DNA of 64,000 nt from Parcubacteria group bacterium GW2011_GWC2_48_17 (GTDB lineage: Bacteria > Patescibacteriota > Minisyncoccia > Phycocordibacterales > UBA10002): contig LCPL01000001.1 of assembly GCA_001003605.1 (NCBI GenBank), forward strand, positions 7,976 to 71,975, in the 5' to 3' direction. Of this stretch, positions 7,641 through 56,602 are shown piece by piece. Within the stretch, counting starts at the first letter, position 1. Each line of letters begins with the position of its first letter. The notes under the pieces are model-generated. The model was not told the DNA's origin. It did not search any database and was given only the letters and a program-made list of their open reading frames with translations. The translations under genes and the position numbers were made by a program.

Positions 7641-8379
7641 AAATGTAAGGCATGTTTAATAACCGCGTCCGACTAAGTGCGGAAGAAGTTTGTTTTATTA
7701 AATTACTTCCTCACTAATTTAGTTTTATTTTAGGAGTGGGTATGGGAGTTGTCTTTCAAAAAGTACCGACTTGGATTGGGGTGGTGGGTATGGGGAGTGC
7801 GTACGGTTTTTCTTCGGTTTCAAAGATGAACCGCTCACAAAAAATTTCTAAAAAATCTAGAACTTCTTGCGTACTTCCCAAAATCAGAACAGAGGTATAT
7901 TATTCACTTGATAACTGAATATTCCGCCCGCAAGGGCATAGCCTAAACCGCTCGATTCATTTCAAAGCGGCACGGCTCCTAATCCCATGGAAGATTCTGA
8001 ACCCCACGTTCAGCGCTCTTCCATGGGTATATCTCCGAAAGGAGGTATGGAGCCGCAAGGCTCTGCTGGCGTGGGGCTCAGTGTTTATCCCTCTCCACGC
8101 CAGCCGTTATCGGCTGTTTTTTGTTTGAGTAGTTCATTGACGGCAGCAGGTTTCGAGAAGTAACGCAATGTTTCTGCAGGAATTTGCGTCCCACTCTCGT
8201 TGTGCGGAAGTGCTTCAAAAACACTTTTTATATGGTCGCCGTTTGCTGAGAAATCGGCAAAATCATCATAGGCACAAACAAAAAAACAAACACAGGTAGC
8301 CACTTTCTGGCTTCTACTTTTTAAAGGGGCGAATGCCCGCCTGCTGCCGTCAGTGAATTATTAAATTATTAAAAGATTT

Positions 8380-16004: not shown

Positions 16005-16850
16005 ATGAACAAATGTAAAGATTTAATAGTCAGACTGGGGAAAGCATTCTCCAGAGTTCCTATTGTCTACCACAACTGGAGATGCAGACACCACAGATGT
16101 GTTCGATGTAACCTCCCCTTTTTAGTAAAGGGAGGGGACCACTATCGCATTGATGCGGGCTACTTTTTTCTTGGGAAAAACTTCGAAAGGAACTGCGAGC
16201 GTGCTCAGCTAATAAATCGTAGAGACAGTTCTGTAGATATGTGCGAATTGAGTGATGCTCACACCCTTCTTGTTGGTATTATCGGGAGCATGCTTGAGGA
16301 ACATAACGGGAGGCGGGTACCTGTCGAAGATGAAAATATAAGGCGTAAGTTTGTTCTGACGGCTGCCTTTGTTCAGGGAATATTTCTGTGCGAACAAAGC
16401 ATTTTGCGGAGCATGTATCTTCAGGCAGGAGCCTTAATAAGACAGGAATTTGAAACCCTAGTTTTGCTGAATGAGATTAAGGCGGGCAGGCGAAAGGATG
16501 GGAAGGTAGGAAACGCAAAGCATGCGCCATGGAAGAGCAGCCGTCACTATGGAGAACTCAGTGCGTTTGCGCATCTGTCTAATCACCAAATTCTTGATTC
16601 GATAATCGGATACAACACTACATGGGGAGACTTTGCGGCGACAACTCCTCGATATCAAAAGGAGAATGCTAAAAGAATTTACTGTTGGCACATTTCCCTA
16701 GTTCTAGGAATTGTGGAAGAGCTTGCTGCTCTATATGTTGAAATGTACGCCTATAAACCTAGTGAGCGAGAAACAGATGCTAAGAATATTGCATTCAGCA
16801 TCTTGGTAAAATACAAGGTCTTCAAAGAGCCACGTGATAAGAGTAGATGA
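16005..16850 (+). CDS. Hypothetical protein. Start uncertain; a possible alternative start is at 16239.
   Basis: 281-aa ORF immediately downstream of res. No motif recognised. Confidence 0.3.
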   Translation: MNKCKDLIVRLGKAFSRVPIVYHNWRCRHHRCVRCNLPFLVKGGDHYRIDAGYFFLGKNFERNCERAQLINRRDSSVDMCELSDAHTLLVGIIGSMLEEHNGRRVPVEDENIRRKFVLTAAFVQGIFLCEQSILRSMYLQAGALIRQEFETLVLLNEIKAGRRKDGKVGNAKHAPWKSSRHYGELSAFAHLSNHQILDSIIGYNTTWGDFAATTPRYQKENAKRIYCWHISLVLGIVEELAALYVEMYAYKPSERETDAKNIAFSILVKYKVFKEPRDKSR

Positions 16851-18971: not shown

Positions 18972-19112
18972 TAGGACTTACGCACTTTATCATCTTTCGG
19001 TGTCATTCCACTGAAAAAGGGAATCCATGTTATGCAGTATAGCTCTGGATTCCCGCCTCTGCGGGAATGATGAGGAGAAAATGCGAGAGCAAGCTAAAGT
19101 GCGTAAGTCCTA
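18972..19112. mobile_element. MITE-like element, copy A, with perfect 18-nt terminal inverted repeats TAGGACTTACGCACTTTA
   Basis: taggacttacgcacttta at 18972-18989 and its exact reverse complement at 19095-19112. The interior carries the widespread gtcattcc...gcgggaat palindromic-repeat core. Confidence 0.55.
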
Positions 19113-29401: not shown

Positions 29402-29476
29402 TTTTTAACCTGCTTGGGTTATACTTGAGTCGTTTCTCTTGCTACCTTCTACCCTCTACTTTCTACCTTCTAAACC

Positions 29477-31584: not shown

Positions 31585-32007
31585 ATGTCTTTCATTGAAA
31601 AAGTGTGCCATTCGTTTAGCAAAGTACCACAAATGGCAGTGCATCTGGGCTGGGGCGCTTTTCTCATGCTCTTTCTCACGCCGCAATCAGCCTTTGCGAC
31701 ACCATGTCCCGAAGGAAGACTCTGCAATCCCATCAACTTTCCCAATCTTACCGCGTTCCTGCTTGAAATTGTAAATATAGCAATCCAGTACGGCGCGCTC
31801 CTTATCGTATTTTTCATCGTCTTCGCCGGTTTTAAATTCGTTACGGCGCAAGGGAACAGCGAGAAGGTGAGTGAGGCGAGAAAAATGTTTACGTGGATTG
31901 TTGTCGGCGCCTTCGTGCTTCTTGGCGTCTATGTGATTAAGGCCGCCATCTGCGGCTCCATAGAACAGCTTGGGGTCACGAACGCGTGCGGATTGACTTC
32001 GCAATGA
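31585..32007 (+). CDS. Secreted two-TM pilin-like protein, paralog 2
   Basis: ...ALLIVFFIVFAGFKFVTAQGNSEKVSEARKMFTWIVVGAFVLLGVYVI... is the same helix / charged-loop / helix core. Confidence 0.45.
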   Translation: MSFIEKVCHSFSKVPQMAVHLGWGAFLMLFLTPQSAFATPCPEGRLCNPINFPNLTAFLLEIVNIAIQYGALLIVFFIVFAGFKFVTAQGNSEKVSEARKMFTWIVVGAFVLLGVYVIKAAICGSIEQLGVTNACGLTSQ

Positions 32008-32026
32008 AAGCAGTACTTAGTAGTTA

Positions 32027-32182
32027 GTAGTAGAGGACTTACGCGGTTGACTGAATTCTCCCTTAATAAAGGGAGCACTGCCGCCTTCGGCAGGAGGGAT
32101 GTTACAACCCCCGCCTCGCCGACTCGGCACCCCCTTTACTAAGGGGGACACACTTCGACCGGATTCCAAACGCGTAAGTCCT
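32027..32182. mobile_element. MITE-like element, copy B (TIR AGGACTTACGCG), with a hairpin-rich interior
   Basis: aggacttacgcg at 32027 and cgcgtaagtcct at 32171-32182. The interior has ctcccttaataaagggag and cccccctttactaaggggg stem-loops, and is related to 37640-37870. Confidence 0.5.
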
Positions 32183-32209
32183 AAGTAGTAGATTAATAGA
32201 CAAAGCAAA

Positions 32210-32593
32210 TTGATGAAAACTATAAGCCACAAAACAAATAGATTTTCTTTGCTACCCTCTACCTTCTACCTTCTACCATCTGCTTTCTTCTACCTTCTAC
32301 CTTCTGTTTCCCTTGCCAACGACTCCATCAAAATCTTTGATACTCCCAATAAGCTCACGTTCACAGACCTCGCGGGGCGGCTTGCAGGCGTTGGGAATAC
32401 AATCATAACCTTTCTCGTCGGCGTTGCTCTCGTTCTTTTGATTTGGGGCGCTTTCAAGTACATCCGTGCCGCCGGCGACTCGGAAAAGCTTGCCGAGGGA
32501 CGTCGAGTGGCCGTCTATGGCATCATTGCCTTGTTTCTAATGCTTTCTTTCTGGGGATTTGTTATGATTATCAAGAAGAGCTTGTTCGGGTAA
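32210..32593 (+). CDS. Secreted two-TM pilin-like protein, paralog 3. Its N-terminal hydrophobic region is encoded by CTACCTTC repeats.
   Basis: ...TFLVGVALVLLIWGAFKYIRAAGDSEKLAEGRRVAVYGIIALFLMLSFWGFVMII. There is no in-frame alternative start downstream of the repeat region. Confidence 0.45.
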   Translation: MMKTISHKTNRFSLLPSTFYLLPSAFFYLLPSVSLANDSIKIFDTPNKLTFTDLAGRLAGVGNTIITFLVGVALVLLIWGAFKYIRAAGDSEKLAEGRRVAVYGIIALFLMLSFWGFVMIIKKSLFG

Positions 32594-32659
32594 TACCAAT
32601 CTGCGAATGTGAACCAATCTACGAATACCTGCTAATAAAACCTACTAATAAACACGCCA

Positions 32660-33130
32660 ATGGCTAGACAAATTTTCTCAATGCTCCTCATAACGCTGAT
32701 GTTGCTGTCTGGAATGATGATGTTTGCGACTCCCACGTTCGCGATATTGTGCGCCTACACGGACGGCGGCACGGTTGAGGTACCTGGGACAGTGTGTCCT
32801 GATGGAAGCACACCTGTTGGCGATCCATCTGGTGACGGCGGCAGTCAAATAACCACCTTCGCTGGTTTGCTAAAACACATCAACGCACTTCTCAACCTCG
32901 TTGTTCCGTTCCTCGTGGGTCTGGCTGTTTTTGTTATAATCTACGGAGTCTTCAAGTACGTTTTCCACGCGGCAGATGAGGAGAAGCGGACGGAAGCAAG
33001 ACTCTTCATCGTCTGGGGAGTAATCGGCGTCTTCTTCATGCTCTCCATTTGGGGGCTCGTGAATATCCTTGTCAACACCGTTCCTCTGCAAAAAAAGCCG
33101 CCGAAGGTGGAGTCGGTGTTTCCTAAGTAA
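32660..33130 (+). CDS. Secreted two-TM pilin-like protein, paralog 4
   Basis: Signal peptide and a Cys-containing N-domain. Core: ITTFAGLL...VPFLVGLAVFVIIYGVFKYVFHAADEEKRTEARLFIVWGVIGVFFMLSIWGLVNIL. Confidence 0.5.
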   Translation: MARQIFSMLLITLMLLSGMMMFATPTFAILCAYTDGGTVEVPGTVCPDGSTPVGDPSGDGGSQITTFAGLLKHINALLNLVVPFLVGLAVFVIIYGVFKYVFHAADEEKRTEARLFIVWGVIGVFFMLSIWGLVNILVNTVPLQKKPPKVESVFPK

Positions 33131-33178
33131 ATACCAATATACGAATGGGAACCAATCTACGAATACCTGCGAATAAGA

Positions 33179-33312
33179 TAGGACTTACGCATTTCGTCAT
33201 TTTCTGTCATTCCCGCGCAGGCGGGAATCCATGCCTTGAAATAACACTCTGGATTCCCGTTCCCCGCCTTCGCGAGGACAAGCTTCACGGGAATGACACC
33301 AAATACGACTTT
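33179..33312. mobile_element. MITE-like element, copy C (left TIR TAGGACTTACGC, degenerate right end)
   Basis: taggacttacgcattt at 33179. The interior has gtcattcccgcgcaggcgggaatcc and ctggattcccg cores homologous to copy A. The ORF-track ORF 33145..33339 is the translation of this repeat. Confidence 0.45.
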
Positions 33313-33335
33313 TTAGAAGCTAATTTCTTAACCTC

Positions 33336-33905
33336 ATGAAGAAAACATACGCGTTTGCGGCAATCTTTGTGTTACTTTTCGTTCTGTCCGCTTCTTTACT
33401 GCCCGGTATTACATTTGCGAACCATGTGTGTATCGGCGATCCTAATTGGGACGAGGACAATGATTTTGCCGAAGGCCATGCTTGTGTCCCGGCCAGCAAT
33501 AGCGGCGGTGGCGGCAAAATAACCACCTTTGAAGGTTTGCTCGGCAAACTAAGTTCGGCCGTCAACTCGCTCGTGCCGTTCATAATAGGACTCGCGGTTT
33601 TTGTCATTATCTGGGGGATTTTTAACTACATCGTGCGTGCCGCAGATGAGGAGAAACGGGCGGATGCGAAAAAGTACATTATCTGGGGAATCGTTGGGTT
33701 GTTTTTTATGCTCTCCATCTGGGGCTTCGTGAACATCCTCTTAAACAGCATCAACCTTGATAGGACCATCAAGACAAGCGATATTCCAAGAGTTCCAAGC
33801 ATTGGCGGGATAGACGGGACAGATGGCGGCACCCCCAGCGGACGGGACAATGGAAGAGATGGCACAGATGACTGTGATCCATCTATTAAGGATTGTCAGC
33901 AATAA
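33336..33905 (+). CDS. Secreted two-TM pilin-like protein, paralog 5, with a G/D-rich C-terminal tail
   Basis: KITTFEGLLGKLSSAVNSLVPFIIGLAVFVIIWGIFNYIVRAADEEKRADAKKYIIWGIVGLFFMLSIWGFVNILLNSINL, then GGIDGTDGGTPSGRDNGRDGTDDCDPS. Confidence 0.5.
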   Translation: MKKTYAFAAIFVLLFVLSASLLPGITFANHVCIGDPNWDEDNDFAEGHACVPASNSGGGGKITTFEGLLGKLSSAVNSLVPFIIGLAVFVIIWGIFNYIVRAADEEKRADAKKYIIWGIVGLFFMLSIWGFVNILLNSINLDRTIKTSDIPRVPSIGGIDGTDGGTPSGRDNGRDGTDDCDPSIKDCQQ

Positions 33906-33924
33906 TTATGAGTGTACCGCCACT

Positions 33925-34281
33925 ATGTTGTTTAGCATAGGAAAGAAAAACACAGCTCTCATTTGGTACGGCCTTCTTTATTTTTTTCTCGCGCCACTCA
34001 CTTTGTTCGCGCAGTCTACTGACCTGCCGAAAGACGCAACCGAGCTCCTCAACCGCATAAGCACATTCATCATAAACCCCATCATCTATCTCCTTTTCGC
34101 CGCCGCGTTTGTAATTTTCGTTTGGGGACTCGTGCAATTCGTGGCGCATCTTGACAACGAAGAGGCGAGAAGCACGGGGGGTAAGCACATGATTTGGGGC
34201 ATCATCGGCATGGTCATCATGGTCAGCGTCAACGGAATAATCTACATAATCCAAAACACCATTCTTCAGCTGGGAAGCTGA
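33925..34281 (+). CDS. Two-TM pilin-like protein, paralog 6 (divergent)
   Basis: Start moved to Met 33925 (the 33823 start overlaps paralog 5). ...IIYLLFAAAFVIFVWGLVQFVAHLDNEEARSTGGKHMIWGIIGMVIMVSVNGIIYII. Confidence 0.4.
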   Translation: MLFSIGKKNTALIWYGLLYFFLAPLTLFAQSTDLPKDATELLNRISTFIINPIIYLLFAAAFVIFVWGLVQFVAHLDNEEARSTGGKHMIWGIIGMVIMVSVNGIIYIIQNTILQLGS

Positions 34282-34338
34282 AGAATAGCTGCTAGCTGTT
34301 AGGTGCTAGGTTCTAGGAAGGAAAAAGAAAAGAAATAG

Positions 34339-34638
34339 ATGCATGAAAGCCGAAAACTAACCGCTTCTGCCCTGCCTTTGACCGATAACGCCACTAATGC
34401 TAGCATAAGAACCATGAATACAATCGTTTTGAAAACAGCTGAATATCAAGAACTAAAGACCCGCGCTGATGCATACGATAGGTTGGTATTTGCCGTGCGT
34501 GAAGAGATTTTTTCGCCACCTCCGACCCGAAACCGCGCCAAGATTATTTCTGAATTAAAAAAGACAAAACGCTATAACAATAAATTTCTTGAGAGTCTCG
34601 CTCGCGGTTTGAAGCGTTCGTCGTATTTCACCTCATAG
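34339..34638 (+). CDS. Putative antitoxin partner of the RelE/ParE toxin (assigned by position only)
   Basis: 99-aa ORF ending 8 nt before the RelE-like toxin gene. No motif recognised. Confidence 0.35.
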   Translation: MHESRKLTASALPLTDNATNASIRTMNTIVLKTAEYQELKTRADAYDRLVFAVREEIFSPPPTRNRAKIISELKKTKRYNNKFLESLARGLKRSSYFTS

Positions 34639-34645
34639 ATTTTCC

Positions 34646-34894
34646 ATGAAAATACTCCCGCTTCATTCGGAAATCGTCCGGTATATTAAAGCGCGAGGTT
34701 TGCTAAAACGGTTTGAAAAGCAGTCAAGACTTTTCGTCGCTAATTTAAATCATCCGAGTCTTGAAATGGGATTGCTTGAACCAAGGCATTTGCGCATTTT
34801 TAGTTTTCGCCTCAACCGGAAGTACCGAGCGATTTTCATTTTTCAAGACAGGGAGACGATTGAGGTGATTGATATCAATAATCACTACCAATAA
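34646..34894 (+). CDS. RelE/ParE-family type II toxin
   Basis: ...HPSLEMGLLEPRHLRIFSFRLNRKYRAIFIFQDRETIEVIDINNHY matches the RelE/ParE C-terminal pattern (HP.L....L.....s.R+...YR.i....+..i.v..I..H). Confidence 0.6.
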   Translation: MKILPLHSEIVRYIKARGLLKRFEKQSRLFVANLNHPSLEMGLLEPRHLRIFSFRLNRKYRAIFIFQDRETIEVIDINNHYQ

Positions 34895-35025
34895 GAAGAA
34901 TAGCTGCTGGCTGTCCGGCGCTAGGTTCTAGCCGGATAAAGGAGAGGAAGATAGCTTCTAGCTGCTAGGTTCTAGCTTTTAGGAAAGAAATCGAAAAACA
35001 ACTTCTAGATAAGCGCCACACATGT

Positions 35026-35394
35026 ATGACTATCACAAAATCCTACAAAGACCTGATTGTGTGGCAAAAAGGAGTTGAACTTTCCGTGCTTGTATATGAA
35101 CTGACTGAAAAGTTTCCCAATGAAGAGAGATATGCGCTTACTTCACAAATGAGACGAGCTGCCGTTTCCATTCCATCAAATATAGCCGAAGGGCGTTGTA
35201 GAAGTACAAAAAAGGATTTTTGCCAGTTTCTGCATATTGCCCTCGGTTCTGCGGCAGAGCTTGAAACACAAATAGAAATTGCAAAGCGAATATCAAAGAC
35301 CTCCAATATCTCATATACAACCATAGAAGCCCTGCTTACCGAAGTTATGAAAATGCTCAATGCTCTTATCTCCAAACTAGAAGCCAATGCCTGA
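35026..35394 (+). CDS. Four-helix-bundle protein (IVS/Avd family), copy 2
   Basis: KDLIVWQKGVELSVLVYELTEKFPNEERYALTSQMRRAAVSIPSNIAEG...LGSAAELETQIEIAKRI. Confidence 0.75.
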   Translation: MTITKSYKDLIVWQKGVELSVLVYELTEKFPNEERYALTSQMRRAAVSIPSNIAEGRCRSTKKDFCQFLHIALGSAAELETQIEIAKRISKTSNISYTTIEALLTEVMKMLNALISKLEANA

Positions 35395-35563
35395 CAGCGC
35401 CAGCACCTTCTCTCGATTCTGCTTCTTCTAGAACCTAGCAGCTAACACCTATCCCTTGCTATCCACACCCCCCCCTTGCGCGTGCGGGAATATAGGATAG
35501 AATAGTGCGTATTAATAGGATTTTCCAAATAGGTCGTATTACTAATTATTTTATAAGTGCTTT

Positions 35564-35989
35564 ATGACTACATTGAAGAAAATTGTCCTTGCGGTCTCTG
35601 CGTATGCTTTGCCGCTGGCCGCGTTTGCACAGGCAGAGGTAGGTAATCTTACTGACCTGTTTATCACAATAAACGGGATTATCAACACCATTATTCCGTT
35701 TCTCGTCGGAATCGCCGTCTTTATCATCATCTGGGGCGTCTTCACCTACATTGCCGGCGCGGGAGACGAGGAGAAGCGGGCGCAGGCGAAGTCGTTCATC
35801 GTCTGGGGTGTTGTCGGCGTGTTTATCATGCTCTCCATCTGGGGGCTCGTGAACATCCTCGCCAACAGCATAAATCTCAAAAAAGACCCGCTTTCACAAG
35901 ATGACCTTCCGACATTTGACTTTGATTTCGGGCAGGACGTTGGCCCTGGCCCTGGCCCTGGTCCCGGCCCTGGCGATGAACAACAGTAA
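35564..35989 (+). CDS. Secreted two-TM pilin-like protein, paralog 7, ending in a (GP)n tail
   Basis: Signal peptide. IIPFLVGIAVFIIIWGVFTYIAGAGDEEKRAQAKSFIVWGVVGVFIMLSIWGLVNILANSINL. C-terminal GPGPGPGPGPG. Confidence 0.5.
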   Translation: MTTLKKIVLAVSAYALPLAAFAQAEVGNLTDLFITINGIINTIIPFLVGIAVFIIIWGVFTYIAGAGDEEKRAQAKSFIVWGVVGVFIMLSIWGLVNILANSINLKKDPLSQDDLPTFDFDFGQDVGPGPGPGPGPGDEQQ

Positions 35990-37010: not shown

Positions 37011-37535
37011 CTATCGCCGGCCATAGCTGGGAAGGAGCACCAACGCTCCGTCAGAGCGATAACCAAATCGCGCCCTCCCAGTGGAATAGCGGTACGGCCG
37101 ATAGTGTCGGCCATATCCTCCATACCCGCTAGTGCGGTAGTACCCGCGCCTGTAGTGGGAGTAGGAGTACGGGTGATAGTGGCGAACACTTTCAGCGCCG
37201 GGCATGAAGTATTGGTATTGGACGGGGTACGCGCCCCCTCCAGCCTGGACGAGAAGAACAAATTGATGTCCGCCTCCTCCTTGGGGAGCGGTTGAAGCAG
37301 GCGCTGATATCGGCTCCGTCGGCACGAAGACTGGCGTCCCATCTTTTGCAAAGAGCCACTGTCCCTGAAGCTCCACCAGTTTCCCATCCCGCAGAATTGT
37401 CGGGTTTTTGAGCACGACGGGTGGGTTGATGGAAGCCGCCAATGGCGGTGTTGCGGGGTCGGAAGCGGCTTGCCCAAAGGCAAGCGGGCCGATGCCAAGT
37501 GCGATGGCAAAGAACAGACTTTTCTTGTTTTTCAT
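37011..37535 (-). CDS. Secreted protein with a Y/G/R-rich low-complexity C-terminus
   Basis: Signal peptide MKNKKSLFFAIALGIGPLAFGQAA. C-terminal HYHPYSYSHYRRGYYRTSGYGGYGRHYRPYRYS. Confidence 0.45.
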   Translation of the reverse strand: MKNKKSLFFAIALGIGPLAFGQAASDPATPPLAASINPPVVLKNPTILRDGKLVELQGQWLFAKDGTPVFVPTEPISAPASTAPQGGGGHQFVLLVQAGGGAYPVQYQYFMPGAESVRHYHPYSYSHYRRGYYRTSGYGGYGRHYRPYRYSTGRARFGYRSDGALVLLPSYGRR

Positions 37536-37893
37536 GCAGTCGAATAGGTTTTGAGTGTTTCGATTGGCTGGTTTTTACCAGCAGAGGACTTTTCTCTGTT
37601 TCGACTCTACCACGGCATCACAATCGCGTCCAACATTAAAGGGTAATCACCGATACTCCCATCTTCTTCCGGAATTCTCCCTTACCAAAGGGAGTACCGA
37701 ATTCTGATTCGGGGAGGGTTGTTGCGGGTAAGCTATTTGTTAAGGGGGAAACAACCCCCGCTCCGAAGACGGAGCATCCCTTCACTAAGGGAAAGACAAC
37801 CCCCACCTCGCAGACTCGGCACCCCCTTTGTTTCCGCCAAAGGACGGATCCGCCTCTGGAGGAAAGGGGGATTGGAGAGTGTGAGAATTGACT

Positions 37894-37935
37894 AAAAACA
37901 CCGACTCCAGAAGCTCCTGGAGTCGGTGTTTTTTA
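37894..37935. terminator. Bidirectional intrinsic terminator (A5 - 12-bp stem - T6)
   Basis: aaaaa caccgactccag aagc tcctggagtcggtg tttttt. Lies 60 nt downstream of the stop of 37993..39237 (-). Confidence 0.65.
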
Positions 37936-37992
37936 TTTGTATTTTGGAATTTGTGATTTGTTTAGAGTTTAGAGTTTCGAATTTAGAGTTTC

Positions 37993-39237
37993 TTACACTA
38001 CGTGGTCTCTCTCTTCTTCCTCCGTATCTTCCTTGGAGCGTTTTCTAAGCGCCATGAAGATGCCGAAGATGATGAGCAGAATCGCACCGATGCCCCATCC
38101 TATAGGACCGCTCACTCGCGAGAAGATTGTTCCGGCTGAAAGCCCATTTTTTTGCTTTGTGATTTCTACCGGATAACACGCCACGGTTTTCGCTTTGTCT
38201 CCCGACACTACCGTTACGGAGGCACGCTTCCCGCCGGTTTTTTCGTACGCCTTTGATGTGGTCGCGCCTTCCCCGGAAAGCGCCTCATCGCCAAACCACG
38301 AAAATCTATATTCTCCCATACCCCCTATGGCAACCGCGTGCCAGACCATCGCGCTCCCTTGCTCCGCTTTCGCTGAAGAGGGAATACACAAGGCCTGAAC
38401 CGGCAGGGCCGCTGTCTTTTCTTTTCCATTAGGAGAAGAGACTGGCGGAGGTACTGCGGGCTTTGAAGGAGTTGTCGGGGTTTGGGCGCCGACGGTTACG
38501 AAGTTTGTGCACGAAACCGCTATGCGATTCTTTCCATCCGCAACCGTAAGCACCGCGAATTTACTCCCGGCGCTCGTGTATGATTTAGAAACAATCGGCC
38601 GCTCGCCTGTGAGTCCTTCCGCGCCATCCCACGAGTAGGTGGTGGATGCAGTAGTGCCCGAAACTATGGAAAGCCACGTTACGCTTTCTCCGAGAACTGC
38701 TTTTTCAGGTGTTGCGTAACAAGAAGCGCCGAGCCCTCCCGCCTGTCCATAATGGAATTGGCCGCCACCGGAATCTGCTCCAATGAGCGTTCCGCCGCAA
38801 GAAACCGTTATCTGTTTAGTGCCCGACGTAACTGTAAGAATGCCAAATTTTTCTCCCATGGTCGCGTATGTCTTAGATACGGCGCTTGTGTTGCCAGACA
38901 AGCCGTCGGTTCCGCTCCACGAGTAAAGATATGTTCCTTGGCCGCCGGAAACGGAAGAGAACCATGTAATTGTCTGCCCGACACCGCTTCTCAAGGTTGA
39001 TGGAGCGCAAGAAACAGAAAGTCCGCCGGCAGTACCCGGTCTGCCTCCAGAAGAAGAGTCGTATTCCGAAAACGACAGGGTGGGCATGAGGTACAGTGCC
39101 CCCGTCCGGGCATTTCTTTCAAATCGAGGGCTGTCACTTTGCGCGTTAATCGCTGAAATGGGCAAGAAGAGTCCTATAGCTAGGGAAATGACAAAAATCG
39201 GTTGTATTAGTGTGTTGATTGTCGTTTTATTTTTCAT
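37993..39237 (-). CDS. Cell-surface protein with three ~90-aa Ig/PKD-like repeats and a C-terminal TM anchor
   Basis: Signal peptide. Repeats share SC.P....G...TW...VSGG.G.Y.YSW.G.DGLSG.....SK.Y...G.K.....V.SG.K...VSC. C-terminal TM GIGAILLIIFGIFMAL + RKRSK. Confidence 0.5.
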   Translation of the reverse strand: MKNKTTINTLIQPIFVISLAIGLFLPISAINAQSDSPRFERNARTGALYLMPTLSFSEYDSSSGGRPGTAGGLSVSCAPSTLRSGVGQTITWFSSVSGGQGTYLYSWSGTDGLSGNTSAVSKTYATMGEKFGILTVTSGTKQITVSCGGTLIGADSGGGQFHYGQAGGLGASCYATPEKAVLGESVTWLSIVSGTTASTTYSWDGAEGLTGERPIVSKSYTSAGSKFAVLTVADGKNRIAVSCTNFVTVGAQTPTTPSKPAVPPPVSSPNGKEKTAALPVQALCIPSSAKAEQGSAMVWHAVAIGGMGEYRFSWFGDEALSGEGATTSKAYEKTGGKRASVTVVSGDKAKTVACYPVEITKQKNGLSAGTIFSRVSGPIGWGIGAILLIIFGIFMALRKRSKEDTEEEERDHVV

Positions 39238-45090: not shown

Positions 45091-45199
45091 AATAGCAGGT
45101 AGATGATAGAAAGTAGAAGGTCAAAATAGATTGTAGAAGGTAGATGGTAGAAGGTAAGAAGAAACAGTCTACTAGCTACTTTCTACCAACTAATTTTTT

Positions 45200-46694: not shown

Positions 46695-47810
46695 ATGACT
46701 CTAGTTTTATTTCTCATCATTCTCGGTGCGCTCATCTTCGTGCATGAGCTCGGACACTTTATCTCCGCGAAAAAAGCCGGAATTCGCGTTGATGAATTCG
46801 CGCTTGGATTTCCGCCGAGGGTACTTGGAAAGAAAATAGGAGAGACAGAGTACAACCTCAATCTCATTCCATTTGGAGGATATGTGAAAATCTTTGGCGA
46901 AGACGGCGACGAAGACGCAGATAAACGCGGATTAGGAACGCAGATAAGCGCGGATAAAGAAAGACGCTTCACCTCAAAACCTCGGTGGGTGCAGGGAATA
47001 GTCCTTGCTTCCGGCGTCCTCGGCAATATAGTTTTCGCGTGGCTACTTGTGTCGATAGGCTTCATGTCGGGTGTTCCATCGGCAATCAACGGGCGATACG
47101 CCGCTGACGTGCGAAATCTCGAGCTTATGGTCACTTCAGTACTCCCGGACTCTCCGGCTTATACAGCAGGGCTTCATTCCGGCGATGTAATCACAGCAAT
47201 CGAGGAAAACGGTAATCGATTTGAAGGCACCGATGCGACAGTGGCAGGAAACTTTATCGGCGCCAGTACGGATAAGCTATCCGTCTTTTACAAACGCGGA
47301 AAAGAAGCTGGAAGCGTAGTCGTACTGCCGAAAGATGGAATTGTGGAGGGGAAACACGCCATAGGGGTTGGCCTAGACACTATAGGTGAAGTGCGCTTCG
47401 GCTTTTTCCGAGCTTTTTTTGAAGGAGCTCTAATGACATGGGACATTACTCGCGAAGTCACTGTGGGCCTAGTCGGATTTTTGAAACAAGCCGTCACTTT
47501 GCAAGCGGACTTAAATTCCATTACCGGCCCCTTGGGTATTGCGGGACTCGTTGGGGAGGCGCGCGTTTTAGGAGTCATCTATCTTCTGTCTTTCACCGCA
47601 TTTATCTCCATTAACCTCGCTGTCATCAATCTTCTGCCAATTCCGGCGCTAGACGGAGGTCGTCTTCTCTTTTTAGCGATTGAAGGCATCACCCGAAGAT
47701 CAATCCCCGCAAAGTTAACTCGAACAGTAAATACGGCCGGCTTCATACTCCTCATTCTCTTTATGGTTTTTATTACATATCGGGATATTGTGAAATTAGT
47801 TAGTAGCTAG
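46695..47810 (+). CDS. rseP: RIP site-2 zinc metalloprotease RseP-like (M50 with PDZ)
   Basis: VHELGHF (HExxH). C-terminal NLLPIPALDGG. Confidence 0.75.
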   Translation: MTLVLFLIILGALIFVHELGHFISAKKAGIRVDEFALGFPPRVLGKKIGETEYNLNLIPFGGYVKIFGEDGDEDADKRGLGTQISADKERRFTSKPRWVQGIVLASGVLGNIVFAWLLVSIGFMSGVPSAINGRYAADVRNLELMVTSVLPDSPAYTAGLHSGDVITAIEENGNRFEGTDATVAGNFIGASTDKLSVFYKRGKEAGSVVVLPKDGIVEGKHAIGVGLDTIGEVRFGFFRAFFEGALMTWDITREVTVGLVGFLKQAVTLQADLNSITGPLGIAGLVGEARVLGVIYLLSFTAFISINLAVINLLPIPALDGGRLLFLAIEGITRRSIPAKLTRTVNTAGFILLILFMVFITYRDIVKLVSS

Positions 47811-47895
47811 TAGCAAGTAGAAAGTAGAAAGTAGCGTGCTACTATTTTCTTATCCGTAATTCGTATATCGGTACTTATTTGTACTCCGTAAACCT

Positions 47896-52414: not shown

Positions 52415-54133
52415 ATGCTACAAAGATTTCTTAAATTGTTTAGTTCACGTAGAGTCGCTCTGCATGGGAAGAAGGAAATCAATCCTGATGAGATATTTCT
52501 TGATTCTAGCAATCTGCCGCAGTTTGACAGGCACCAATTCGAGGGCCGCCTTGAGCGTCCTATAGCTCGCCGCACCATTTTCATTTTAGGTGGCGTATTT
52601 TGCTTGGCAATGCTTCTGGTTCTCTCAAAGACCTTTTCACTTCAAATAATGGAAGGAGACCGGTACGCAAATCAAAGCGCGCAAAATCGCCTGCGCCACA
52701 GCCTGATTTTTGGCTCGCGCGGCGTGTTCTATGACAGGAACGGAACATTACTCGCATGGAATGTCATTGATGACGCTAAACCTGAATTTTCGAAGCGCAA
52801 ATATCTGGAGCAAAATGGACTGTCGCACGTCGTAGGATTTATAAAATATCCTTCAAAGGATAAAGCAGGGTTCTATTATAAAGTTGATTTTGAAGGACTT
52901 GATGGAGCGGAAAAGTATTACAACGAATATGTCGCGCCGCAACATGGAATCAGAATCGTTGAAACAGACGCTCATGGGAATATTCAGTCGGAGAGCGTGT
53001 TAAAGCCGCCAAAAGATGGAGCAAACATTACTCTAACTATCGACGCGCGCCTTCAGAGTAAGCTTCACGAGTTAATGGAAGGTCTAGCGAAGGAACGCGG
53101 TTTCAACGGAGGCGCCGCAGTCATAATGGATGTTCAAAACGGCGAGCTTCTCACCATGGTGAGCTTTCCAGAGTACGATTCACAAGTTCTTACCGATGGT
53201 AGCGATGAAGACGCCATAAAAAAGACGCTTGCTGACCCAAAGACTCCATTCCTCAATCGAGCTACAAGCGGACTATACGCGCCAGGCTCTATCGTTAAGC
53301 CGTTCATAGCACTTGCTGCGTTGGAAGAGGGAATAATAACGCCAGAGAAGGAGATAGTAAGCACAGGCAAGATATCAGTTCCGAACCCATTCGACCCGAG
53401 CAAGCCGAGTGTTTTTAAAGATTGGAAAGCGCACGGCGCTGTTGATATGCGCAAAGCATTGGCAGTTTCATCCGACATATATTTCTACGAAATAGGCGGG
53501 GGGTTCGAAGAACAAAAAGGACTTGGTATCGGGAGCATCGAAAAGTATATGCGTCTATTCGGCTTCGGCGAGGAGCCAGGAGGAAACGATTTCTTTGGTG
53601 AAGCCGGAGTCATCCCAAATCCCAAGTGGAAACGCGCGAATTTTAACGGTGAAGCGTGGAATCTTGGCAATACCTACCATACGTCGATTGGGCAATATGG
53701 ATTTCAGGTAACTCCCTTGCAGGTGGCGCGCGGAGTTGCCGCGATTGCGAATGGCGGAAAGCTTTTAGAACCTCGGCTTGTAGAGGAAAAAGAAATTCCG
53801 CCGTCATATGCGGTGATTCCTATCAAAACTTCCTCTTTCGGGGTTGTGAAAGAAGGTATGCTTGGCGCCGTAACTTTAGGTGGCACGGCAAGTGGACTTT
53901 CCATTCCCAACATAAGCGTTGCCGGAAAGACTGGAACAGCGGAGCTAGGAACCTTAAAAAAACTAGTCAACTCATGGGTAGTGGGATTCTTTCCATATGA
54001 AAAACCTGCGTTTGCGTTTGCAATCATAATGGAAAAAGGCCCGCGTGATAACACCATAGGCGCGACTTTTGTGGCTAGGCAGCTATTCGAGTGGATGAGC
54101 GTGTATACGCCGGAATACCTGCGGAGTCAGTAA
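52415..54133 (+). CDS. mrdA: Penicillin-binding protein 2 (elongasome transpeptidase)
   Basis: SxxK (GSIVKPF), SxD/N (VSSDIYF), KTGTA. N-terminal TM. Lies in the mreBCD block. Confidence 0.75.
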   Translation: MLQRFLKLFSSRRVALHGKKEINPDEIFLDSSNLPQFDRHQFEGRLERPIARRTIFILGGVFCLAMLLVLSKTFSLQIMEGDRYANQSAQNRLRHSLIFGSRGVFYDRNGTLLAWNVIDDAKPEFSKRKYLEQNGLSHVVGFIKYPSKDKAGFYYKVDFEGLDGAEKYYNEYVAPQHGIRIVETDAHGNIQSESVLKPPKDGANITLTIDARLQSKLHELMEGLAKERGFNGGAAVIMDVQNGELLTMVSFPEYDSQVLTDGSDEDAIKKTLADPKTPFLNRATSGLYAPGSIVKPFIALAALEEGIITPEKEIVSTGKISVPNPFDPSKPSVFKDWKAHGAVDMRKALAVSSDIYFYEIGGGFEEQKGLGIGSIEKYMRLFGFGEEPGGNDFFGEAGVIPNPKWKRANFNGEAWNLGNTYHTSIGQYGFQVTPLQVARGVAAIANGGKLLEPRLVEEKEIPPSYAVIPIKTSSFGVVKEGMLGAVTLGGTASGLSIPNISVAGKTGTAELGTLKKLVNSWVVGFFPYEKPAFAFAIIMEKGPRDNTIGATFVARQLFEWMSVYTPEYLRSQ

Positions 54134-54281
54134 GTAGCAAGTAGAAAGTAGCAAGTAGCAAGCAGGCAGTATCGAATTTTCTTTTTCTACCTTCTACCCT
54201 CTACTGTCTACCTTCTGCTTGTGCGTTGACTTACTCTCAAAAACCCGCTACAATCTTGAGGTTTAGCAAATCTAACGAATA

Positions 54282-56463: not shown

Positions 56464-56602
56464 GGAATAGTAAATTGAACAGCGGCACCACAGGGCGTTA
56501 GACCCTGCGGGTCGCCCCGACTTCCCTGCGCGGGAGCGCATGGTGTCCTCATTCGCATGCGCCATTCGTTAAGCGTATCTACTATGAATTAGGAATTAAG
56601 GA

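Follow-up and report, generated by a model that had tools for sequence, protein, structure and literature searches.

The window, by which we mean the whole 64,000-nt stretch of DNA that was analysed, contains a minus-strand gene at 37011..37535 whose product has a signal-peptide-like N-terminus, and a PKD-domain gene at 37993..39237 (−) that is ended by a bidirectional intrinsic terminator starting at 37894. Both the ORF and the terminator were found as the preliminary description had given them. Between them, upstream of 37011..37535, lies a hairpin-rich stretch. The neighbourhood encodes PKD and CARDB proteins as well as a 23S-rRNA-IVP/bAvd-like protein (35026-35394); a DGR, suggested by the bAvd-like gene, was rejected because neither an RT nearby nor a TR/VR pair was seen. 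At least five T4SS-pilin (PF18895) paralogs occupy 31585-35989, with 223-nt segments that are 63-74% identical, and the 223-nt repeats at 32879, 33549 and 35669 are these pilin paralogs. The secreted protein of 37011..37535 has an exact match on GCA_003514705.1 (DOPE01000037.1) and in groundwater assemblies. No population variation was found at the hairpin-rich locus, five assemblies being identical across the region.

Other features of the window were also recorded. Full-length LOOT RNA (RF03000) at 7940-8064 (+) scored 80.2 bits (gathering score, 46.4) and was the sole Rfam family in the window. An intergenic block of about 120 nt that ends at an ATG (56470-56588, +) is 89-92% identical to L075 and L093 and 71% identical to L096, where an internal hairpin is expanded. 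This block had no Rfam match at E<=1 and is a candidate for a conserved structured RNA or 5′ UTR in CPR. Degenerate TAG-rich, heptamer-like intergenic spacers (AGTAGAAGGTAG / CTACCTTCTACC) were found at 29433-29471, 32243-32305, 45093-45193, 47794-47836 and 54125-54218; these introduce stops into every reading frame and are also present in related CPR contigs, including L124 4243-4470.

Two copies of a modular palindromic repeat

The hairpin-rich stretch is real, as it folds far below shuffled sequence. Its extent had been given as 37640-37870, which holds approximately for the location, the true boundaries being 37672-37872. The stems listed for it were present at 37677-37694 (ctcccttaccaaagggag), 37778-37791 (cccttcactaaggg) and 37739-37761 (gttaaggggga aacaaccccc gc), and the fourth was present at 37822-37843 as ccccctttgtttccgccaaagg, its earlier spelling having had one c too many. 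Sequence sharing with a region near 32.1 kb was also borne out: within the window one block, GAATTCTCCCTTANNAAAGGGAG, occurs only at 32053-32075 and 37672-37694, and the other, ACAACCCCCRCCTCGCMGACTCGGCACCCCCTTT, only at 32104-32137 and 37796-37829. Both blocks had 0 matches in 100 dinucleotide shuffles, and pairwise alignment of the two regions recovered both. The folding energies of the two regions were well below those of shuffled sequence on either strand (z −5.1 to −7.9), with z of −5.9 (+) and −7.9 (−) at 37.6-37.9 kb and of −5.7 (+) and −5.1 (−) at 32.0-32.2 kb. We call these regions copy 1 and copy 2 of a repeat family; profile searches found no third copy within the 64 kb. The features of copy 1 and of the shell around it are as follows.

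32035..32181, no strand assigned: shell around copy 1, with inverted ends GGACTTACGCG / CGCGTAAGTCC
32053..32150, +: canonical full-length copy 1 (full-element profile, E=1e-25)
32058-32075, +: hairpin H1
32078-32093, +: hairpin H2, then GAGGGATGT
32104-32113, +: C-tract ACAACCCCCG
32114-32130, +: core
32130-32147, +: hairpin H4

Copy 1 is located between two pilin genes and is 94.6% identical, over 92 nt, to a copy inside the cysteine desulfurase gene of L004. The region that encloses it had been described as a MITE (copy B), and its inverted ends are indeed 11-bp perfect repeats (GGACTTACGCG at 32035-32045 and 32171-32181). These shell ends belong to a repeat family distinct from the palindromic modules. 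Ends of the TAGGACTTACGC type occur in seven other CPR loci (L010, L012, L014, L036, L072, L083 and L120), and the interiors of the two further TIR copies in the window (18974-19110 and 33181-~33300) are unrelated to that of copy B, which shares only the ends with them. Interior palindromes of the GTCATTCC…GGGAATCC type were observed in these two TIR copies.

The features of copy 2 and its immediate surroundings are as follows.

37588..37635, −: block located downstream of the repeat and ahead of the ATG, also conserved at the orthologous locus L122 (alignment)
37675..37722, +: 48-nt two-hairpin module (nhmmer module profile, E=4e-13)
37677-37694, +: H1 of this module, CTCCCTT-ACCA-AAGGGAG
37697-37712, +: H2 of this module, CCGAAT-TCTG-ATTCGG
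37713-37722, +: G-tract of this module, GGAGGGTTGT
37723..37750, +: remnant TGCGGGTAAGCTATTTGTTAAGGGGGAA, as compared with canonical ...CACCCCCTTTGTTAAGGGGGAT units
37751..37795, −: apparent inverted, diverged 48-nt module (weak match; module profile 37752-37793 (−), E=0.08)
37796..37872, +: 45-nt unit expanded to 77 nt (exact core match; unit profile, E=3e-9)
37796-37805, +: C-tract of the expanded unit, ACAACCCCCA
37806-37822, +: invariant core of the expanded unit, CCTCGCAGACTCGGCAC
37822-37829 / 37863-37870, +: H4 arms CCCCCTTT / AAAGGGGG, then AT
37830-37862, +: 33-nt insertion in the H4 loop
37894..37943, both strands: bidirectional intrinsic terminator (called at 37894-37933) with a 17-bp stem and T-runs on both strands, separate from the repeat

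Copy 2 had been considered a second, decayed copy of the MITE. It belongs to the family that makes up the inside of copy B and is not a copy of the TIR-bounded MITE; ends of the GGACTTACGC type were not found near 37.6-37.9 kb. It is also less decayed than compound, consisting of a module (+), a remnant, a module (−) and a unit whose hairpin loop contains an insertion. In our reading, the remnant would contain the 3′ half of an H4-type hairpin (TTTGTTAAGGGGG) whose preceding core was deleted. The inverted module, which on the minus strand has the order CCCTT-AGTG-AAGGG, ATG, CTCCG-TCTT-CGGAG, CGGGGGTTGT, is a weak match whose assignment would rest mainly on this architecture, and the unit profile also matches 37751-37791 on the plus strand (E=0.03). 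An insertion comparable to that in the H4 loop (…GGCGGATCCGTCC…) was found in L038. The ORFs 37636..37806 and 37719..37895 are element-derived.

Comparison of copies across the family defined two building blocks. The 48-nt module has the order H1 (CTCCCTT-loop-AAGGGAG), NAC, H2 and GGAGGGnTGT. Its H2 has 33 different stems among 40 module copies, and the H2 loop is nearly always TCTT or TCTG. The 45-nt unit consists of a C-tract (for example ACAACCCCCG), the invariant 17-nt core CCTCGCnGACTCGGCAC and H4, in which the 5′ arm is pyrimidine and the 3′ arm purine. The H4 arms of different subfamilies (CCCCTTT/AAGGGGG, TTCCCCTC/GAGGGGAA, TCCCCCTC/GAGGGGGA, CTCCCCCGTC/GACGGGGGAG, CCCTCCTC/GAGGAGGG and CTCCTTT/AAAGGAG) differ from one another in a fully compensatory manner. 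Thus the stems covary, while the loops and the core stay fixed across copies. Some copies have a plain hairpin with a complementary CAGA/AAGA loop in place of the core, and in L013, L060, L065, L070 and L089 the core is on the opposite arm. Blocks are found alone or in tandem, and they may be inverted, inserted into one another's loops or joined into a palindrome of about 95 nt (32053-32150), and tandem arrays with an 83-nt period were found in L034 and L079. When RNAalifold was applied to 12 full-length copies, a long foldback of H1 with H4 was favoured over local hairpins; the alignment was poor in the variable H2, and hairpins were therefore scored per copy instead.

Two interpretations of the core were discarded. 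It is not a CcrM (GANTC) site, because the site is not conserved among core variants, and the vague resemblance of the reverse core to the D-arm of a class II tRNA was dropped without further support; a tRNA/tmRNA scan of the window detected none. Another observation concerns the H4 subfamily CACCTCCTTT…AAAGGAGG (L004 5191, L070 3910, L083 8697 and L101 1719), whose 5′ arm equals the anti-Shine-Dalgarno tail of 16S rRNA. The 3′ arm of this subfamily is an SD-like AAGGAGG followed by AATAAGA, and its intergenic copies could mask or supply ribosome-binding sites.

Copies in other genomes and inside genes

Scanning one genome per species with the pattern CCTCGCNGACTCGGCACCCCC gave 17 loci, all of them in CPR MAGs with no more than five copies per MAG, and a slightly looser pattern gave 86 loci in metagenomes. 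Together the genome and metagenome loci amount to about 95-105 unique copies, which occur in both orientations, in intergenic gaps and inside genes. Their hosts are Parcubacteria, Taylorbacteria, other CPR (Patescibacteria) contigs and Phycisphaerales (Planctomycetes); the relatives found were Parcubacteria, Taylorbacteria and Paceibacterota MAGs. Twelve matches with full context were on high-GC contigs, and the proteins encoded on two of these, L023 and L080, are named Phycisphaerales by their sources. On the high-GC contigs L049, L095 and L099 the unit directly adjoins an opposite-strand tRNA gene, at the 3′ end of that gene. On IMG/VR viral contigs, 11 exact matches to the core were attributed to chance, as all were in high-GC contigs and had neither C-tract nor hairpin context, and they served as a null for the surrounding context. 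The metagenome matches L022, L043, L044 and L059 also look like chance matches. A search of the full-text literature, the coverage of which is incomplete so that a prior description is possible, found no account of this repeat family in CPR. A peptide search with the 41-aa translation of the element gave no matches, probably on account of the word index or low complexity.

About 30-40% of the copies are inside ORFs of housekeeping genes, and the frame is always kept. Among 89 CPR-like copies, an ORF runs through 26 and none is a convincing case of a frame-breaking copy within a gene; six are split-gene candidates that resemble ordinary co-directional gene pairs, of which the pilin pair in the window alone was inspected. 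Pfam identified at least 17 host protein families with domains on both sides of the insert. The hosts include a class-V aminotransferase (cysteine desulfurase-like, IscS/NifS-like), Zn-ADH, PheT, Obg, LigA, GlmS, SecA, Mur ligases, GuaA, PolA, DnaG, SMC, a DNA methylase, an RNase R-like protein and, on a high-GC contig, a DEAD/DEAH helicase. Within genes, about 14 copies are in the sense and about 17 in the antisense orientation. Depending on the subfamily, the host frame through the core reads PRGLGT, ASQTRH or RLADSA in sense copies and GAESAR or VPSPRG in antisense copies. Since the host frame differs among subfamilies, what is conserved is the nucleotide sequence and not a peptide. In-gene copies are most likely translated rather than removed from the mRNA, because removal should mostly break the frame, yet the frames are intact. 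An AlphaFold model of the LigA protein P0056 shows no long coils with pLDDT<50 other than the inserts at 110-160 and 286-297, which are flanked by well-predicted elements; the in-gene inserts are thus predicted to be disordered loops at tolerated positions.

Two in-frame occurrences were noted separately. One ORF, L037 1064-2287, consists of an N-terminal part of LigA and a C-terminal part of Obg with the junction exactly at the element-derived GAESARRG, and is probably an assembly chimera, or a product of recombination, via the repeat. In the window, a solitary H1/H4-like hairpin, CCTCCCCTTTTTAGTAAAGGGAGG, is found at 16110-16140 inside ORF 16005..16850 (+), a gene of unknown function. It translates as NLPFLVKGGD and is possibly a lone in-frame remnant of the palindromic repeat family.

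The ligA gene provided examples of gain and loss. Most of 120 CPR LigA orthologs are 666-674 aa long, and about 25 contain element-derived peptides, such as …NKGGAESARRGL… or …PSSAGRGVSPL…, at three hot spots and in both orientations. At the IYDLS…P.TQHEEL site the orientations are opposite by lineage (…GGAESARRG… versus …PSSAGRGVSPL…), and the site is empty in P0057 and P0058, the closest relatives of L010. Orthologous sites are thus occupied in some lineages and empty in the nearest relatives. Over 2097 nt, L125 and L126 have the same ligA sequence (100% identity) save for one 48-nt module, and the ligA gene of L127 (81% identity) has a single module. The difference between L125 and L126 indicates that whole modules are gained or lost in tandem, exactly and within very short times. 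Inspection by eye of the flanks of 19 copies (the 17 loci and the two window copies) revealed no consistent target-site duplication, and a flanking direct repeat (CCCGAGG) was found only in L001. No transposase, target-site duplication or nucleotide-resolution pair of empty and filled sites was found, and for this reason we can only infer de novo mobility.

Possible roles of the copy upstream of 37011..37535

The surroundings of copy 2 were compared with orthologous loci. Downstream of the PKD-gene ortholog in L120 (70% identity) the element is absent, as seen over only the 333 nt available before L120 ends short of the next gene, and a TAGGACTTACGC-type MITE is present instead; nothing related was found downstream of the orthologs in L121 (55%) and L124 (53%). 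In L122/L123 (49%, Parcubacteria GW2011_GWA2_49_9), a family member of the same orientation follows the terminator; its middle differs, a plain hairpin taking the place of the core. In the stretch that runs from the element to the start codon, GCGCGATTGT..CCGTGGTA..GTC…CAGAGAAA is common to the window and L122. The conserved 37588..37635 block contains an extended −10-like TGgTAGAGT at 37612-37604 (−), and a consensus promoter scan made no call there. From this weak consensus match and the conservation in one relative, the block may be a candidate promoter of 37011..37535. If TGgTAGAGT is the promoter, transcription starts downstream of the element, which then lies about 60-260 nt ahead of the start site. 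The proteins encoded downstream in the window and in L122 have no detectable homology (E = 0.27), a signal-peptide-like start alone being common to them. Rfam 15 gave no match for either copy at the gathering score or at E<=1-10, other than terminator-like miRNA noise.

We consider it likely that 37672-37872 arose as a compound insertion, the inserted repeat being modular, palindromic, non-coding and dispersed, and that it is selfish DNA resembling REP and RPE elements. The preliminary description had also offered a structured 5′ leader (regulatory RNA), and a dedicated riboswitch- or attenuator-like leader of 37011..37535 (−), acquired from the repeat, would fit with the position of the element upstream of this gene, with the low folding energy of its minus strand (z = −7.9) and with the related element that precedes a signal-peptide gene in L122/L123. 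We find such a leader very unlikely, since the same modules occur about 100 times elsewhere, in either orientation and also in frame within housekeeping ORFs, and the element is missing from three of the four orthologous loci (L120, L121 and L124). The proteins that would be regulated in the window and in L122 are not detectably homologous, the conserved, promoter-like TGnTAGAGT block sits between the element and the ATG, and there is no Rfam match. The T-run of the terminator on the plus strand, directly after the element, suggests instead an independent small RNA extending from about 37672 to 37940 and ending at the plus-strand reading of the bidirectional terminator; the plus strand also folds well below shuffled sequence (z = −5.9), and both window copies are on this strand. 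This is extremely unlikely, because no promoter-like site was found upstream and neither copy 1 nor most other copies of the family have a terminator. The copies inside ORFs and the lack of an Rfam match argue against it as well.

By analogy with proposals for REP/BIME, folded copies might serve the cell by protecting mRNA 3′ ends, by insulating or strengthening termination next to 37894-37933 or by binding nucleoid or repair proteins, in which case copy 2 would be a buffer between terminator and promoter. Its place right next to the terminator, the matching position and orientation of the L122/L123 copy, the strong covariation that keeps the hairpins and the conservation of core and loops across CPR and Phycisphaerales are all in keeping with such a role. 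However, orthologous sites are patchily occupied, copies occur in both orientations and within ORFs, and copy number differs among otherwise identical genes, and we regard exploitation by the host as quite unlikely. Two of the same observations bear on the selfish reading itself: the L122/L123 copy, in the same place and orientation, could be old, retained and possibly useful DNA, and an invariant 17-nt core common to two distant phyla is not what one usually finds in a purely selfish repeat and may point to a constrained function.

In the mechanism that we propose for the selfish repeat, it would be DNA of the REP/BIME-RPE type, selfish or neutral in its behaviour, that spreads or expands at the DNA level. 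Modules would be gained and lost in tandem via slippage or unequal exchange, and new insertions would be made by a putative structure-specific enzyme acting on single-stranded DNA, in which it would recognise the core and the conserved loops, with copies persisting only where they are harmless. Copy 2 would then have lodged in the gap between the PKD-gene terminator and the probable promoter of 37011..37535, and any effect of the window copies on a neighbouring gene would be incidental.

Relation to known repeats and the mirror tract

RPEs are short palindromic, hairpin-forming, multi-copy repeats that are found in frame in unrelated housekeeping genes as well as between genes; their peptides are at tolerated positions and the mobilising mechanism is unknown (PMC10969869, PMC3733652). 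The present family likewise inserts in frame, without stop codons, into unrelated protein-coding genes. It differs in that its hosts are CPR and Phycisphaerales rather than Rickettsia, so that it is at most an analogue, likened by features alone; in that it is built from 45- and 48-nt blocks stacked in tandem, inverted or nested, whereas RPEs are units of about 100-150 bp; and in its invariant, non-palindromic 17-nt core. The host frame varies among subfamilies of the family, which thus has no conserved peptide.

REP elements (REP, BIME and REPIN), which are mobilised by RAYT, are imperfect palindromes of 20-40 nt with a GTAG or CGTC tag at one end, as defined in PMC3733652, and have occasional intragenic copies, often in replication and repair genes (PMC3733652). 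As in REP/BIME, a short conserved single-stranded tag stands beside a hairpin with a variable stem, the units form mosaics of alternating orientation (copy 2 is module(+)/module(−)/unit(+)) and the hosts include LigA, PolA, DnaG, SMC and a helicase. However, the GTAG/CGTC tag is absent from the hairpin feet, which are GGCAC|CCCCC…GGGGG|AT, CA|CTGCCG…CGGCAG|GA and similar, and the tag of the family is 17-19 nt long rather than 4. Membership in the GTAG or CGTC REP super-families was therefore rejected. The large intragenic share is a further difference, REP being extragenic.

With MITEs (for example Correia, ERIC and Chunjie) the family shares a size below 500 bp (45-200 nt), a non-coding and multi-copy nature and a foldback structure. 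MITEs have TIRs of about 4-30 bp; one subfamily of the present repeat ends in TCTTATTCTCCC…GGAGGAATAAGA, but neither window copy has its own TIRs, copy 1 being enclosed by those of another family. The repeat grows module by module, and no parent IS was identified. The family is G+C-rich, not A+T-rich, and has no consistent TSD, and on these two counts it does not qualify as a MITE; nor does it keep to intergenic DNA as MITEs prefer to, given the 26 of 89 CPR-like copies with an ORF running through. Its distinctive features are the 45/48-nt modularity, the invariant 17-nt core, the occurrence in CPR and Phycisphaerales and a mirror tract.

The mirror tract consists of the eight bases before ‘CG + core’, which mirror the opening eight bases of H4. 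Over 78 unique combinations, scored with C=C and T=T or A, 7.14 of 8 positions matched the mirror model, compared with 5.08 ± 0.15 for permuted pairings, none of 2000 permutations reaching the observed score; these statistics are inflated by the relatedness of the copies. Sliding the register by one base lowered the score to 4.6-4.9, and a direct-repeat model for the relation between C-tract and arm was rejected (4.1/8 versus 7.1/8 for the mirror). At the two most informative positions all four combinations were seen (TC/CT, TT/TT, CT/TC and CC/CC). Two pyrimidine tracts cannot pair together, and an intramolecular triplex has as its signature a mirror repeat beside a hairpin. Such a triplex could form as Y·R-Y on one strand or as G·G-C / A·A-T / T·A-T on the other; on the reverse strand, a G-rich third strand with A/T opposite A-T pairs fits the observed tolerance of A/T. 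The family resembles H-DNA-type mirror repeats in that the pyrimidine tract 5′ of the core mirrors the pyrimidine arm of the hairpin in a fixed register, as expected of a Y·R-Y triplex or, read on the opposite strand, of an R·R-Y triplex. Classical H-DNA, in contrast, is one uninterrupted homopurine-homopyrimidine mirror repeat in duplex DNA, whereas here the three strands would be supplied by a hairpin and a conserved 19-nt spacer.

We therefore raise, as a speculation that we rate as unlikely, that the 45-nt unit might be a recognition element in which the C-tract and the two arms of the hairpin, pyrimidine and purine, fold into an intramolecular triplex, with the invariant 19-nt spacer displayed as a loop for an enzyme that copies the element into single-stranded DNA. 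This reading would call for a horizontally shared putative enzyme and would cover insertion into genes that include essential ones, in two unrelated phyla. If it is true, mobile palindromic elements would gain a new class, one that is recognised by its triplex.

For the window, the outcome is that a false lead was removed, as the region consists of repeat DNA and is no riboswitch-like leader. More generally, tiny, streamlined CPR genomes harbour repeats that colonise surface loops of many essential proteins, among them LigA, PolA, DnaG, SecA, Obg, GlmS and GuaA, and the copy number of the family is still shifting in 48-nt steps. The repeats insert disordered segments of 15-50 residues, which affects annotation, homology modelling and alignments, and they can join unrelated genes in assemblies, as in the LigA/Obg case of L037. 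They are also a ready source of new peptide loops, and the 17-nt core that CPR share with Phycisphaerales, together with the mirror signature, is a handle on how such elements move.
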